A stretch of 64,000 nt of DNA from Bacteroidota bacterium (GTDB lineage Bacteria > Bacteroidota > Bacteroidia > CAILMK01 > JAAYUY01). The stretch is taken from NCBI GenBank assembly GCA_016776505.1, contig JADHTG010000002.1, positions 13,852 to 77,851 of the forward strand, in the 5' to 3' direction. The position numbers and the translations under genes are program-made. Below the pieces are notes generated by a model. That model saw only the letters and a program-made list of their open reading frames with translations, did not search any database and was not told the origin of the DNA. Below are positions 1,488-60,432 of the stretch, one piece after another. Each line of letters starts with the position of its first letter. The first letter of the stretch is position 1.

Positions 1488-1940
1488 TTAGTCTTCTTTT
1501 TCAGCGAATATGTCCAGCTTCATTTCAACCTGAACCTCTTTGTGAAGTTTTATTTTTATCTTGTATTTGCCTATTTCAGTGATTTCTTCAAGGATCAAAA
1601 TATCTTTTCTGTCAATATCATAACCCATCTCTTTCAAGGATTTTGAAATCTGAAGATTTGTAATTGAACCAAATAATTTACCGCTGGTACCTACCTTCAC
1701 AGGAATTTTGACTGCTGATTTGGCCAGCTTAGCTGCTATCGCTTCTGCATCAGCTATCTGCTTCGCTATTTTATGAGCAGCCTGCTTATTGTTTTCTTCA
1801 ACCACTTTTTTATTGGATTCTGTGGCAAGAATAGCCATTTTTTTGGGGATCAGATAATTACGCGCATAACCTGGCTTGACAGAAATGATATCGCCGGCAT
1901 ATCCCAAATTATCTACATCTTGTTTTAATATAACTTCCAT
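1488..1940 (-). CDS. rplI: 50S ribosomal protein L9
   Basis: 150 aa; the N-terminus MEVILKQDVDNLGYAGDIISVKPGYARNYLIPK matches the L9 signature; last gene of the rpsF-rpsR-rplI cluster. Confidence 0.93.
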   Translation of the reverse strand: MEVILKQDVDNLGYAGDIISVKPGYARNYLIPKKMAILATESNKKVVEENNKQAAHKIAKQIADAEAIAAKLAKSAVKIPVKVGTSGKLFGSITNLQISKSLKEMGYDIDRKDILILEEITEIGKYKIKIKLHKEVQVEMKLDIFAEKED

Positions 1941-1947
1941 GATATCA

Positions 1948-2220
1948 TTATTTTAAAGAATCTGAAACAAATGGCAGAAGAGCTAAGTGTCTTGCCTTTT
2001 TTATGGATGAAGCCAATCTTCTTTGATATTTCAATGAAGTTCCGGTATAGCGCCTTGGAATAATGCGCCCGTGCTCGTCAACAAATTTCAATAAAAAAGC
2101 AGGATCCTTGTAATCGATGTATTTAATATTGTGTCGTTTGAACCAACAATATTTCTTTTTCCTTGGCCTTTCTTTAGGCGTAATATTTATAAATATGTTT
2201 TTATATGCTGGGTTTGCCAT
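1948..2220 (-). CDS. rpsR: 30S ribosomal protein S18
   Basis: 90 aa; [50 protein letters not shown] is the conserved S18 core. Confidence 0.93.
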
Positions 2221-2228
2221 TTTCTGAA

Positions 2229-2612
2229 TTATTTAGATTTAGTTAAATCGCTATTTTCTTCTATTAGCTTTGGAGCTACGTTTTTTCCTTCTTTTCTTCT
2301 CTTTTCATTGTACATGATCCCGTATTTCTCTAATGAAACGGTCAGATACCTCAGAATTTTTTCATCCCTGTTGAATTCAGTTTCCAGTTTTTGAATGAAT
2401 TCTGAAGGAGCTTTGTACTCAAATAAGTGATAATATCCTGTTGTTTTCTTTTTAATCGGATAGGAAAATTTTCTCAGGCCCCAATCTTCTTCATAAATAA
2501 CTTCTGCACCGTTCTGGGTCATCAAATCCTTGAATCGGGCTACTGATTCTTTTAATTGGCTATCAGTAACCAACGGCGATGTAATAAAAATTGTCTCGTA
2601 ATGATTCTGCAT
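2229..2612 (-). CDS. rpsF: 30S ribosomal protein S6
   Basis: 127 aa; HYETIFI...[14 protein letters not shown] is the S6 signature; first gene of the rpsF-rpsR-rplI operon. Confidence 0.9.
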
Positions 2613-2978: not shown

Positions 2979-4706
2979 ATGACAGAAAGTTTCGTAGTTT
3001 CAGCAAGAAAATACCGTCCCTCTACTTTCAATTCTGTGGTCGGTCAAAGCCATATTACCGATACGTTGAAAAAAGCTGTACTGAGTAATCATTTGGCCCA
3101 GGCCTATTTGTTCACCGGTCCCCGTGGAGTTGGCAAAACGACTTGTGCCAGGATTCTTGCGAAAGCCATTAATTGCGAGAAACTGGAAAAGGACGGTGAA
3201 CCATGTGATGCCTGTAATTCATGTAAAACATTCAGGGAAAACAGATCCATGAATATTTTTGAACTGGATGCTGCATCCAATAATTCAGTTGAAGATATTC
3301 GGGCCCTGGTGGATCAGATCAGGTTTTCACCACAGGCCGGAAAATATAAAACCTACATCATCGATGAGGTTCATATGCTTTCCACACAGGCCTTTAATGC
3401 CTTTCTTAAAACATTGGAAGAACCCCCTCCATATGCTATTTTTATACTGGCTACTACTGAAAAGCATAAAATCATTCCTACCATACTCTCACGATGCCAG
3501 ATCAATGATTTCAATCGCATCCAGGTGAAAGATATTGTCAGCTACCTGCAATATATTTCTGAACAGGAAAATATCAGATCGGAAGAAACTGCGCTTCACA
3601 TCATTGCTCAAAAAGCAGATGGGGCCTTGCGTGATGCATTGACTATTTTTGACCGTATTGTAGGTTTTACACAGGATGAAGTAACTTATGATTTTGTAGT
3701 CAAAAACCTGAATATCATAGATTATGACTACTTCTTTAAAGCCATTGAATTGATCCATGACAGGAATATTGCAGAAATACTGCTAGTATTTGATGAATTA
3801 CTGAATAAAGGTTTTGACGGTCAACATTTTTTAATGGGATTAAGCGAACATATCAGGAATCTATTAATCAGCAAATTACCAAAAACAGATATTTTACTGG
3901 ATGTACCTGAAACAGTAAAAAACAGATTCGCAGAAACTGCTAAGGACCTGAACAAATCTTTCATCCTTTCAGCATTAAACATTCTTAATCAGTTCAATAT
4001 AAGTTATAAAGAAAGTAAAAATCAGCGCCTGCATACGGAACTGGCACTGATCAAGCTTTGTCATATACAGGATGCCATTGACCTGGCTCAGACCTTTAAC
4101 GATCAAAAAAAAAAAGCTGAAGTAGACAAAAAGGAAACGACAAAACCCGGGCTTTCTAAGGACATTGAACACAAGGAAAAAAAAGCGATTGATGAATCCC
4201 CCAAGAAAAAAAATAACTTCAGTAAGTTTAGAGATTTACAATCTGTCAAGCAACAAGTTAAAGAGGAGGAATCACAAGAAAAAAAAGTACTAACAGAAAC
4301 TAGCCAGGAAACTGCAGAAAAAAATAAAAAGAACACAATAGATCAGCGTCGATTTATTGAATTGCTCAATAAATATCTTGAAGATGAGATAAAGGACAAA
4401 ATGATCAGCTTGTATAACAGCATGATAGAAAATAAACCAAAATTCCCTGATGAATTTTCTGTTTTATTCGAATTTGAAAACGCCTCACTGGAAGAACGAT
4501 TCAATAAAGGCATGGGAAAGTTTACTGATTTTATGAATAAGCATGAGATAGAGAATTTCCAAATTCAAACCACGACTCGTGAAATCAGCAGGGAAGAACA
4601 AAGTAAATACCTGGTCAGTCCTGCTGAAAAATTAAAACATTTGAGGGGAAAAAATCCGGAACTGGAGCAGCTGGAGAAGAAGTTGGGATTGTCTGCTGAA
4701 GAATAA
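2979..4706 (+). CDS. dnaX: DNA polymerase III subunit gamma/tau
   Basis: 575 aa; Walker A GPRGVGKTT, clamp-loader box motifs, and a lysine/glutamate-rich C-terminal tau extension. Contains an internal A11 tract (see findings). Confidence 0.93.
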   Translation: MTESFVVSARKYRPSTFNSVVGQSHITDTLKKAVLSNHLAQAYLFTGPRGVGKTTCARILAKAINCEKLEKDGEPCDACNSCKTFRENRSMNIFELDAASNNSVEDIRALVDQIRFSPQAGKYKTYIIDEVHMLSTQAFNAFLKTLEEPPPYAIFILATTEKHKIIPTILSRCQINDFNRIQVKDIVSYLQYISEQENIRSEETALHIIAQKADGALRDALTIFDRIVGFTQDEVTYDFVVKNLNIIDYDYFFKAIELIHDRNIAEILLVFDELLNKGFDGQHFLMGLSEHIRNLLISKLPKTDILLDVPETVKNRFAETAKDLNKSFILSALNILNQFNISYKESKNQRLHTELALIKLCHIQDAIDLAQTFNDQKKKAEVDKKETTKPGLSKDIEHKEKKAIDESPKKKNNFSKFRDLQSVKQQVKEEESQEKKVLTETSQETAEKNKKNTIDQRRFIELLNKYLEDEIKDKMISLYNSMIENKPKFPDEFSVLFEFENASLEERFNKGMGKFTDFMNKHEIENFQIQTTTREISREEQSKYLVSPAEKLKHLRGKNPELEQLEKKLGLSAEE

Positions 4707-4842: not shown

Positions 4843-6210
4843 ATGAGCGGACAAAAAATTAGAATGCAAAATGGAAAATTAAATGTTCCAGATCAACCCA
4901 TTATTCCATTTATAATTGGCGATGGCACAGGACCGGATATTTGGAAAGCTTCAAAGAAAGTTTTTGATGCCGCAGTCCAAAAAGCTTACAATGGGAAACG
5001 ACAAATTGAATGGCATGAAGTTCTGGCCGGTGAGAACTCTTTCAACAAAAGCGGTGAATGGCTTCCAAAAGAAACGCTGGATGCATTTAAAGAATACTTA
5101 GTTGGAATTAAAGGTCCATTAACAACTCCAATAGGCGGAGGTATTCGCTCCTTAAATGTTGCATTAAGACAGGAACTTGATCTATATACCTGTCTCAGAC
5201 CGGTAAAATATGTTGCTGGTGTTCCATCGCCTGTTAAAAGACCTGAAGATGTGGATATGGTGATATTCAGGGAAAACACAGAAGATATTTATGCCGGTAT
5301 TGAATGGAAGGAAGGATCGGATGAAGTGAAAAAAGTCATTGCTTTTCTTGAAAATGAAATGGGTATTAAAAAAATCAGGTTTCCTAAAACTTCTGGAATT
5401 GGAATCAAGCCGATTTCCAAAGAAGGAACGACACGACTGGTTAGGGCAGCAATAAAATATGCTTTGGAAGAAAAAAGGAAATCAGTTGTCCTGGTTCATA
5501 AAGGCAATATCATGAAATTCACTGAAGGAGCTTTCAAAAGTTGGGGATATGAGCTGGCGAAAGAAGAATTCAGAAATGAAATTATTACAGAAAGAGAAAG
5601 CTGGATTATTGGGAACAAAGATTCAAATCCTGCCCTGACATCAGAAGATAACGCCAAAATGATAGACCCGGGTTATGTGATGATGACGCCCAAACAACAA
5701 AATGAGATTTGTGAAGAAGTTGAATTAGCCTTATCATTGATGCCAACACATGGGAGCGGACAATGGAAAAACAAACTTTTAATCCGCGATACCATTGCTG
5801 ATATTACCCTGCAGCAAGTCCTTTCCAGGGCTAAAGAATTTGATGTAATTGCTACCATGAACCTGAATGGGGATTATTTGTCTGATGCACTAGCTGCCCA
5901 GGTGGGTGGAATCGGGATCGCTCCCGGTGCAAATATCAATTACGAAACCGGACATGCTATTTTCGAAGCTACACACGGAACAGCTCCGAAATATGCCAAT
6001 CTCGATAAAGTCAACCCGGGAAGTGTGATCATCTCAGGTGGCATGATGTTCAAATTTTTAGGTTGGAATGAAGTCAATGAACTGATTTGGAATGGACTGG
6101 TTAAAACAATAGGTCAGAAAAAAGTGACTTATGATTTTCACCGCTTAATGGAAGGAGCTACATTGCTCAAATGTTCTGAATTTGCAGATGCCATAATCGA
6201 GAATATGTAA
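4843..6210 (+). CDS. icd: NADP-dependent isocitrate dehydrogenase
   Basis: 455 aa; near-collinear with E. coli Icd ([71 protein letters not shown]). Confidence 0.95.
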
Positions 6211-6235: not shown

Positions 6236-6266
6236 CTGATCATGCATTTGGTTGGGGCTTTTTTTT
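6236..6266 (+). terminator. putative rho-independent terminator after icd
   Basis: AGCCC...GGGCT stem followed by T9. Confidence 0.45.
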
Positions 6267-6707
6267 TGGGAGCAAGGTGGTGCCCTGGGCATCCCTTCGG
6301 GAAAGGTTTAAAGATTGAAGGTTGAAAAGTTGAAGGTTAGGATGCTGGCTGATGACTGCCGACTGCAAATGGCAAACCAGGGTTTCTTCTTACTGAGTAA
6401 GCAGAAGAGGTTTCGGTATATGAAAGTCTGGAGACTTTCCTTTATAAAAACTTCCAAGTCGTCCTGTGGAAGACTTGGAAGAACAAGGGTAATTCTATTA
6501 TTAGTTATTCAATTTTTCCATTATTCGAAATAGGTTGTGGGATGTTGGATTTGGATTTTGAGTTGTGGATCTTGGGTTTTGTTATGTCCATGCCTAAATA
6601 AGGTTGACCAAATTTTTAATATAATTATTAATTCTTGGACCAGGAAGCTTTTTGGCACGATATTAGACAAGCCACTTGCTTTGAATACAATTTAATTAAA
6701 TATAGTT

Positions 6708-16986: not shown

Positions 16987-17029
16987 TATTAAAAAACCAA
17001 TCAGAAATTGTAGATTGGGTGAGGATTTG

Positions 17030-17102
17030 CTGACCGACCAGGGGTCGAACCTGGACTCTTCTGATCCAGAATCAGATGTGTTGCCTGTTACACCATCGGT
17101 CA
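17030..17102 (-). tRNA. tRNA-Gln (anticodon CTG)
   Basis: Manual cloverleaf: acceptor TGACCGA/TCGGTCA, D-arm GTGT-AACAGGCA-ACAC, anticodon arm TCTGA-TTCTGGA-TCAGA (anticodon CUG), T-arm CCAGG-TTCGACC-CCTGG, discriminator G; 73 nt, CCA not encoded. Confidence 0.85.
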
Positions 17103-17121
17103 ATAAAGAACAAAAAATTAG

Positions 17122-17193
17122 CTGACCCACAAGGACTTGAACCTTGAATTCCAGAACCAAAATCTGGCGTGTTGCCAATTACACCATGGGTCA
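17122..17193 (-). tRNA. tRNA-Gln (anticodon TTG)
   Basis: Acceptor TGACCCA/TGGGTCA, anticodon arm CCAGA-TTTTGGT-TCTGG (anticodon UUG), T-arm CAAGG-TTCAAGT-CCTTG, 72 nt. A Bacteroidetes-type -33 TTG / -7 TAATTTTG promoter lies just upstream, at 17200-17245 on the minus strand. Confidence 0.85.
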
Positions 17194-30036: not shown

Positions 30037-30396
30037 TCATTTCACATAATCCTGCCTCACAACAAGCATTAAATATTCATCTTCAATAGGGAGATATCCC
30101 TGGTCATAGCAGAAAAAATACTCTTTTTCCGCCTTTGTTCTGTAGATATTTGTAAAGTAGTTGAAATTGAATCCCTTATCAAGCAATTGACTTTTATGAA
30201 TCTTTGCTTTGCCGGTGGTATTTGATTCAGCCAGAATTTTCCGGTTTTTCCGTAGAATATTGTTAATATTCCTGACAAAATTATTGGCATCAGCATTCTG
30301 CCGGTTGTTATAGGTATTCCGGCATTGATCCGAACAGAATTTTTTATCTACCCGACCTTGAAATTCATCATGGCATTCGAGACATTTTTTTTTCAT
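30037..30396 (-). CDS. hypothetical protein with an N-terminal zinc ribbon (CLECHDEF...CSDQC)
   Basis: 119 aa ORF with a Cys4 motif; no recognisable catalytic domain. Confidence 0.5.
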   Translation of the reverse strand: MKKKCLECHDEFQGRVDKKFCSDQCRNTYNNRQNADANNFVRNINNILRKNRKILAESNTTGKAKIHKSQLLDKGFNFNYFTNIYRTKAEKEYFFCYDQGYLPIEDEYLMLVVRQDYVK

Positions 30397-37852: not shown

Positions 37853-38088
37853 TAATAACTGAGATGATCTTGCATCCGCCATGATCCGGAATTCCAAATC
37901 AATTATTTGAAAGCATTTTTTAGAGCAGTTTATTTTTGCACCAGAATTGCTTAACAAGTAGCTCAGATTATTAGCTTTCTTAAAATGATCGACTGCAGAT
38001 TAAAAAAAAACATCAATAATTTGCCTGATATTAATACTGATCACTTAACAAAAATGTATATTAATTTCAGTTAAAAACCCAATAACAG

Positions 38089-60321: not shown

Positions 60322-60432
60322 ATAACGTTTTAGGGGTGCTCAAAATAACGAGCTGAGATCACACCCATTGAACCTGAACCAGGTAATGCTGGCGTAGGGA
60401 TAAATGGAAACACCTGTTTTACAGTTCCTTCA
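60322..60432 (+). promoter_or_regulatory. TPP (thiamine pyrophosphate) riboswitch in the leader of the TonB-dependent receptor gene
   Basis: GGGGTGC...GCTGAGA...ACCC...GAACCTGAACCAGGTAATGCTGGCGTAGGGA matches the THI-box consensus (CUGAGA, pyrimidine-sensor helix, GCGUAGGGA). Confidence 0.85.

Follow-up and report, generated by a model that had tools for sequence, protein, structure and literature searches.

A conserved poly-A tract in the dnaX gene of a Bacteroidota bacterium as a probable slippage site for the production of tau and gamma

The sequence analysed here is a 64-kb stretch of DNA from a Bacteroidota bacterium (contig JADHTG010000002.1 of assembly GCA_016776505.1, positions 13,852 to 77,851 of the forward strand; hereafter, the window), in which one open reading frame (ORF), dnaX, carries a run of 11 As just past its clamp-loader portion. 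The ORF is DnaX. Its product contains the Pfam domains DNA_pol3_delta2 (residues 23-181), DNAX_ATPase_lid (186-230) and DNA_pol3_gamma3 (246-368), and it is matched by the NCBIfam gamma/tau equivalogs NF011531 and NF004046 and by TIGR02397 (dnaX_nterm), the latter with a full-length match over residues 7-361. In a search of PDB sequences, E. coli gamma/tau structures align with DnaX residues 4-303 (E=1e-66); as this alignment stopped at residue 303, the boundary of domain III was taken from Pfam and TIGRFAM. PF28557/DUF8439 is found C-terminally in the database copy of the window DnaX and in the relatives of this protein. The layout of the gene is given in Table 1.

Table 1. Features of the window dnaX gene (positions refer to the window; aa, amino acids)
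Feature	Position	Strand	Product or basis
dnaX ORF	2979..4706	+	575 aa + stop; zero-frame product is tau, 66.3 kDa; ORF list, translation
Clamp-loader domains I-III, residues 1-368, common to tau and predicted gamma	2979..4082	+	Pfam PF12169 end, TIGR02397
A11 homopolymer (template strand T11), predicted slippage site, codons Q376(cAA) K377 K378 K379	4105..4115	+	sequence
TGA stop, -1 frame, after AGC (4115-4117)	4118..4120	+	would end gamma (380 aa, KKKS) on +1 A transcripts or after a -1 ribosomal shift
TAG stop, +1 frame, after CTG AAG	4123..4125	+	would end gamma (381/382 aa, KKKLK) on -1 A or +2 A transcripts
Tau-only C-terminal region, residues 380-575: Lys/Glu-rich linker and C-terminal domain; outside predicted gamma	4116..4703	+	translation

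The tract, CAAAAAAAAAAAGCTGAAGTAG, is read as CAA AAA AAA AAA GCT over Q376 to A380, preceded by D375, and it begins in codon 376, eight codons past the end of domain III as defined by the Pfam match, which ends at residue 368. A stop codon is found one codon from the run in the -1 frame and two codons from it in the +1 frame, and the zero frame stays open for 196 codons beyond the run. The A11 is the longest homopolymer of the window and its sole run of at least 10. The original prediction, made from the sequence alone, had pointed to an A11 tract in dnaX with nearby stops in both alternative frames, and a check of the sequence agrees, although the codon numbering given then (376-379 for DQKKKA) was one off, the real span being D375-A380. 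It had also held that a shift into either frame would yield a product of about 380 aa ending just after domain III. This was reproduced when products were predicted by in silico editing of the run length in the window dnaX: an mRNA with A12 gives a protein of 380 aa ending in KKKS (43.3 kDa) and one with A10 a protein of 381 aa ending in KKKLK (43.5 kDa), A9 and A13 give 379 and 382 aa respectively, A11 gives the 575-aa, 66.3-kDa tau, and A14 gives tau with one additional Lys. As every truncated product stops 11-14 residues past domain III, each would fit the definition of the gamma subunit. Three A8 tracts (4177-4184, 4206-4213 and 4279-4286) are also present in the tau-only linker, less than 180 nucleotides (nt) from the A11; they represent three of the nine A8 tracts of the 64-kb window.

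Conservation of the tract was assessed in two sets of loci: (i) 80 GTDB species representatives and (ii) 80 metagenome loci retrieved with the N-terminal 375 residues alone, so that their selection was blind to the C-terminal frame. Of the metagenome loci, 75 were anchored, and a few further contigs were added through database proteins. The anchor in each locus was the codon aligned with E354 of the window, as mapped by tblastn; this mapping replaced a strict motif (SKN.[RQK]LH.E), which found the end of domain III in few loci only. The tau frame was assigned by the length of the ORF beyond the run, and tblastn with window residues 441-575 gave almost no matches for this assignment, the C-terminus being too divergent. 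Of the 80 GTDB loci, 72 have a run of A9 to A11 at the boundary between domain III and the linker, 31-141 nt past the domain III anchor, and so do 46 of the 75 loci anchored in metagenomes. Over the total of 162 anchored loci, the run is present in 124 sequence-distinct contexts, as A10 in 85, A9 in 27 and A11 in 12, and it is never longer. The taxa covered are Sphingobacteriales, Chitinophagales, Cytophagales, Saprospiraceae, Flavobacteriales and many Bacteroidales/Bacteroidia metagenome-assembled genomes.

The start of the run falls in codon phase 0 in 33 loci, phase 1 in 52 and phase 2 in 39, the neighbouring residues vary, and the run is kept in genomes of 54-58% GC where AAA accounts for no more than 19-31% of the Lys codons elsewhere in dnaX. 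These data indicate that the tract is held as nucleotides, and not merely as Lys-Lys-Lys. A distinct argument based on Lys codon usage (with an AAA fraction of 0.70, all-AAA triplets are expected in 50 of the 124 contexts) was dropped as partly circular, the loci having been picked for having the run. In the closest relative, whose N-terminus is 87% identical to that of the window protein, the same A11 occurs in the same phase (GATC-A11-GCTGAA) on 12 independent contigs, and the species-level cluster of the window DnaX has three members, all of 575 aa, on at least six contigs. When the products predicted for A12, A10 and A9 (380, 381 and 379 aa) were searched for as exact sequences, no record was retrieved. 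As no truncated variants are recorded, there is no sign of DNA-level heterogeneity of the run length in the window species; an assembly error does not account for the window A11.

The stop codons in the shifted frames were examined in the 107 contexts in which tau is in frame 0, with random codons of the same genes as background. In the -1 frame, a stop is found within two codons in 85% of the contexts (background 24-25%) and within three codons in 94% (background 31-32%). In the +1 frame, a stop is found within five codons in 76% (background 31-34%) and within eight codons in 92% (background 42-46%). The sequence surrounding these stops varies widely among the loci.

All three frame arrangements of tau are seen among the Bacteroidota loci. 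Past the run, the long ORF continues in the -1 frame in 15 of the 124 contexts and in the +1 frame in two; tau being out of frame in these 17 loci, its synthesis there would need slippage at the run. The two cases with tau in the +1 frame, L057 (A11) and L115 (A10), would need the loss of one A or the gain of two, and may be genuine or result from a homopolymer miscall in the assembly. In the -1 frame type, the C-terminal part of tau constitutes a separate ORF. The locus L081 illustrates this arrangement close to the window: its N-terminus is 84% identical to that of the window protein and it has the rplI-rpsR-rpsF/dnaX synteny in common with the window, yet it carries A10 in place of A11, its zero frame ends at 382 aa (...DQKKNLNQ*) and the tau part runs on in the -1 frame over a further 190 codons. 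The same arrangement, with an ORF for the DUF8439 C-terminal part downstream, was found in L082, on a 2.8-Mb contig, and in L083. Among the 120 homologues that scored best in the database, about one in four is an ORF of ~380-398 aa, and the 19 inspected all end at a K-run (KKK, KKN, KKKAS and similar); one cluster of this out-of-frame A10 type, P0119, comprises 123 sequences and spans 31 contigs. Such out-of-frame arrangements would be viable only with efficient slippage.

The RNA structure 5' of the run was also compared over the 124 contexts. A hairpin was scored when the 32 nt upstream fold with an energy of -8 kcal/mol or below and the stem ends within 3 nt of the run. A stable hairpin of this kind precedes the run in 39 of the 124 contexts, versus 3.7% at random positions in the same genes. 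When similar sequences were collapsed, it was retained in 24 of 88 contexts, with stems unrelated in sequence. Examples are GACCTCTCTGTGAACGGAGAGGTC in L041, CTCATCAGCCAATGGTTGATGAG in L018 and GATCTTGCCAGGGAATGGCAGGATC in L081, each followed by A10; the last, at positions 4102-4126 of L081, folds at -15 kcal/mol (z -3.1). Hairpins directly 5' of the A-run are also present in L127, L136 and L116, among others. No report of hairpins of this kind in dnaX was found in the literature, of which the coverage is incomplete.

On the basis of its sequence and of its conservation in orthologues, the window A11 probably serves for programmed slippage in the manner of Thermus thermophilus dnaX, allowing the synthesis of both tau and gamma from a single gene. 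During transcription of the T11 template by RNA polymerase, the nascent A-run would realign, leading to a pool of mRNAs with mainly A11, A12, A13 and A10. Normal translation of the A11 (and A14) mRNAs would yield tau, whereas the A12 mRNAs would stop at the TGA at 4118-4120 and the A10 and A13 mRNAs at the TAG at 4123-4125. The truncated products, of 380-382 aa and ~43 kDa, would consist of domains I-III followed by ~12 residues, and hence correspond to gamma. A minor additional product ending in the -1 frame may come from ribosomal -1 slippage on A_AAA_AAA. In T. thermophilus, gamma and tau are made at a ratio of ~1:1 by transcriptional slippage on 9 As, with stops in both non-zero frames (Larsen et al. 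2000, as summarised in PMC5009743); the addition of one A is the commonest slip there, and multisubunit RNA polymerases slip efficiently on A/T runs of at least 9 (both PMC5009743).

The same two proteins could be obtained from a homogeneous mRNA by programmed -1 ribosomal frameshifting, the tRNA-Lys slipping on A_AAA_AAA and translation ending at the TGA at 4118-4120, as -1 frameshifting does in E. coli dnaX (PMC5009743). A phased A_AAA_AAA heptamer is indeed present inside the A11, and no other feature is as strongly conserved as the -1 frame stop (94% within three codons). Moreover, where tau is out of frame, it almost always continues in the -1 frame (15 loci, as opposed to 2), a bias that fits the +1 A pattern of Thermus and fits -1 frameshifting equally. 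However, the elements on which the E. coli site depends were not found. The A_AAA_AAG heptamer is absent from the window site, where only A_AAA_AAA occurs, and in E. coli A_AAA_AAA is far less shifty than A_AAA_AAG (PMC5009743). No Shine-Dalgarno (SD)-like stimulator (GGAG, GAGG or AGGA) is present in the window upstream sequence CTCAGACCTTTAACGATC; over the orthologous sites such a motif is found upstream in only 20 of 124 and is not enriched, and within the Bacteroidia, Flavobacterium johnsoniae rarely uses SD sequences (PMC8710568). On the 3' side, the window has no stem-loop, the 60 nt downstream of the run being unusually unstructured (-1.8 kcal/mol, z +1.85), downstream structure is not enriched over the loci (mean z -0.25), and the Rfam DnaX frameshift element was detected neither in the whole window at the gathering threshold nor around the site at E<=10, where only chance-level matches were obtained (6A, SAM-II, E ~2.7). 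Ribosomal frameshifting also leaves the conservation of the +1 frame stop (76% versus ~32%) unexplained: a -1 shift never enters the +1 frame, so that the retention of this stop points to mRNAs lacking one A or carrying two additional As. The run length is held at 9-11, a range in which RNA polymerases slip efficiently, although 7 would do for the ribosome, and the enriched hairpins sit 5' of the run and not 3'. The conserved +1 frame stop, run length, the absence of E. coli-type stimulators and the side on which structure is enriched lead us to favour transcriptional slippage over -1 ribosomal frameshifting, which these sequence comparisons make unlikely as the principal route to gamma.

It might also be argued that no recoding takes place, the tract being incidental to a Lys-rich, AT-rich linker with a preference for AAA and the nearby stops being due to chance. 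The window has 37% GC and its linker holds the three further A8 tracts, a first-order Markov model predicts ~0.7 A-runs of at least 11 per 64 kb, and for a random codon of three long window ORFs the probability that a -1 stop follows within two codons and, jointly, a +1 stop within three is ~0.02. The statement of the original prediction that immediate stops in both frames are unlikely by chance thus holds only moderately for one sequence, but the probability is not vanishing; within the window alone, the tract and its stops are only marginally beyond chance. Their significance comes from the conservation among orthologues, which had been named beforehand as a test, and not from single-window statistics: both the A-run and the out-of-frame stops are conserved, and this supports the proposal of a slippage site for a gamma-like product of ~380 aa, as an inference from sequence. 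Although 36 loci manage without the run, a chance origin does not account for a tract found at the same position of the gene in 124 distinct contexts, with lengths of 9-11, in all phases and also in high-GC genomes that favour AAG, nor for stops that are 2- to 3.5-fold enriched in both shifted frames, nor for an essential tau ORF that goes out of frame exactly at the run in 17 loci. From these sequence comparisons, the view that no recoding occurs is strongly disfavoured, and we hold it to be very improbable. The variation might instead lie in the DNA, either through replication slippage, which would cause heritable phase variation of tau, or through homopolymer sequencing errors, each cell making one product only. 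Close relatives do alternate between A11 (the window and L164) and A10 (L081), assembled homopolymers are prone to error, and the +1-frame cases L057 and L115 could be miscalls. However, a functional replisome requires tau in the bacteria studied, and the 'off' phase would be lethal. In addition, the window A11 is repeated in at least six contigs of its own cluster, free of recorded truncated variants, as well as on 12 contigs from the next relative, and the out-of-frame A10 recurs in many independent assemblies (the P0119 cluster) and in the complete genomes of Antonov et al. (PMC3711429). Variation or artefact at the DNA level is, in our opinion, the least probable of these explanations.

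Besides the chance expectations for the window, several points weigh against transcriptional slippage. The run is missing from 36 of the 162 anchored loci, mainly from gut Bacteroidales, and gamma made through an A-run is dispensable in some lineages, given these loci; the slippage cassette has been lost from, or was never present in, these largely gut-type Bacteroidales lineages. Run-less loci have Pro/Ala-rich linkers (a subset of L088-L158, e.g. L100-L102, L106-L114 and L158, as well as L011, L019, L024, L048, L065 and L080). The loci are phylogenetically related, and binomial p-values calculated on them overstate their independence. The window itself has no hairpin abutting the run: its upstream 40 nt fold at -5.9 kcal/mol with a stem that is not adjacent (z -0.45), and slippage in the window would rest on run length alone. 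Slippage on the A11 is presumed by analogy with multisubunit RNA polymerases in general, as is its efficiency in Bacteroidota, and on experimental dnaX slippage in Bacteroidota the literature search retrieved only a computational report from 2013 and reviews. Finally, A-runs of at least 10 include an A_AAA_AAA heptamer in every phase, which allows for a ribosomal -1 contribution.

The transcriptional slippage predicted for the window site can be compared with several known systems. Like Thermus dnaX, the window gene has tau in a single ORF, nine or more consecutive As where gamma and tau part, and close stops in both non-zero frames, and ordinary translation of slipped mRNAs, which gives gamma in Thermus, would do so in the window; however, the Thermus run is an A9 in a high-GC thermophile and was demonstrated by experiment, whereas the window A11 belongs to a low-GC Bacteroidota and is known from sequence and conservation only. 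Nearer in phylogeny is the 'novel organisation of dnaX', with a tau that depends on a shift, reported by Antonov et al. in 2013 for 17 genes of 12 genera, nine of them with A10 (PMC3711429). Their set includes F. johnsoniae, F. psychrophilum, Cytophaga hutchinsonii, Capnocytophaga ochracea and Chlorobium species (PMC3711429), and the A10 two-ORF dnaX also occurs in Coraliomargarita (PMC3711429, Supplementary Figure S3). These authors proposed transcriptional realignment by analogy with Thermus, dnaX being outside their experimentally tested clusters (PMC3711429). The phylum and the position of the poly-A tract in the gene are the same, and L081 has exactly this architecture. In the two-ORF type, however, the zero frame stops at the run and encodes gamma, and the C-terminus of tau lies in the -1 frame and needs the shift; this type, met in L081, L082 and L083 and in 15 of the 124 contexts, is not that of the window, where the situation is reversed, with tau in frame and gamma predicted to arise from slippage. 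Because the method of Antonov et al. (e.g. GeneTack) detects DNA-level frameshifts only, single-ORF genes such as that of the window are invisible to it. A 2016 review noted that, at ~50% efficiency, a single-nucleotide change can swap the product that needs the shift, and this swap is the difference between the window and L081.

The E. coli dnaX is the same gene, and its gamma is likewise cut after domain III by a stop located one codon past the shift at an A-rich tRNA-Lys site; it has, however, A_AAA_AAG, a 5' SD and a 3' stem-loop, whereas the window lacks these, has a longer run and belongs to a family in which the +1 frame stop is conserved too. In the Roseiflexus IS630 element, a terminator-like stem-loop in the nascent RNA stimulates RNA polymerase slippage (Penno et al. 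2015, as described in PMC5009743). The hairpins found 0-3 nt 5' of the run in about one quarter of the Bacteroidota dnaX lineages have the same geometry, but the Roseiflexus motif is T5C5 and not a homopolymer, the window has no such hairpin, and a stimulatory role in dnaX is putative. Caulobacter crescentus makes gamma by proteolysis of tau (cited in PMC5009743). The outcome, a shorter DnaX devoid of the C-terminal domains, is similar, although the process is post-translational and involves no slippery sequence; the window data speak neither for nor against additional proteolysis. The core idea is thus already published, both as Thermus-type slippage and as the reversed two-ORF form predicted earlier for Bacteroidetes. 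Three points go beyond the literature found: how widely the single-ORF form occurs, the figures for the conservation of the two out-of-frame stops, and the 5' hairpins.

A broader proposal can be put forward more tentatively, with rather less than even confidence: dnaX may carry a slippage cassette throughout the Bacteroidota, working at an efficiency near 50%, in which single-base changes of the run swap the zero-frame product and, in about one quarter of the lineages, the hairpin acts as a tunable stimulator. If this is true, hairpin-stimulated slippage of RNA polymerase would for the first time be found in a conserved cellular role outside insertion sequence (IS) elements, and the window would represent a hairpin-less A11 variant.

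Around dnaX, the closest relatives L081 and L164-L166 share with the window the order rplI-rpsR-rpsF (minus strand), dnaX and the isocitrate dehydrogenase gene; in the window, the flanking genes occupy 1488-2612 (-) and 4843-6210 (+). The homopolymers of nine in the window are a T9 at 30385-30393 (+ strand), which is a minus-strand A9 right at the 5' start of a small ORF (30037-30396, -), and three intergenic runs (A9 at 2781-2789, T9 at 6259-6267 and A9 at 38002-38010). The window also contains a thiamine pyrophosphate (TPP) riboswitch at 60322-60417 (+) (Rfam RF00059, 68.2 bits, over the gathering score) and a tandem pair of tRNA-Gln genes at 17029-17102 and 17121-17193 (-), with anticodons CTG and TTG.

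In the bacteria studied, the C-terminal domains of tau bind the replicative helicase and the DNA polymerase III core. The gain of this study is one of breadth and detail and not of principle, the core idea having been published before. For annotation, the ~380-aa 'dnaX' ORFs that many Bacteroidota genomes carry ahead of an orphan DUF8439 ORF would not represent pseudogenes, and a single-ORF dnaX such as that of the window hides a second, predicted product. For the recoding field, frame toggling between relatives and the 5' hairpins may constitute a natural series for the tuning of RNA polymerase slippage efficiency. The tau:gamma ratio sets the make-up of the clamp loader and thereby the number of polymerases per replisome, and a large and ecologically important phylum very probably sets this ratio by a slippery A-run and not by the ribosomal frameshift of E. 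coli.

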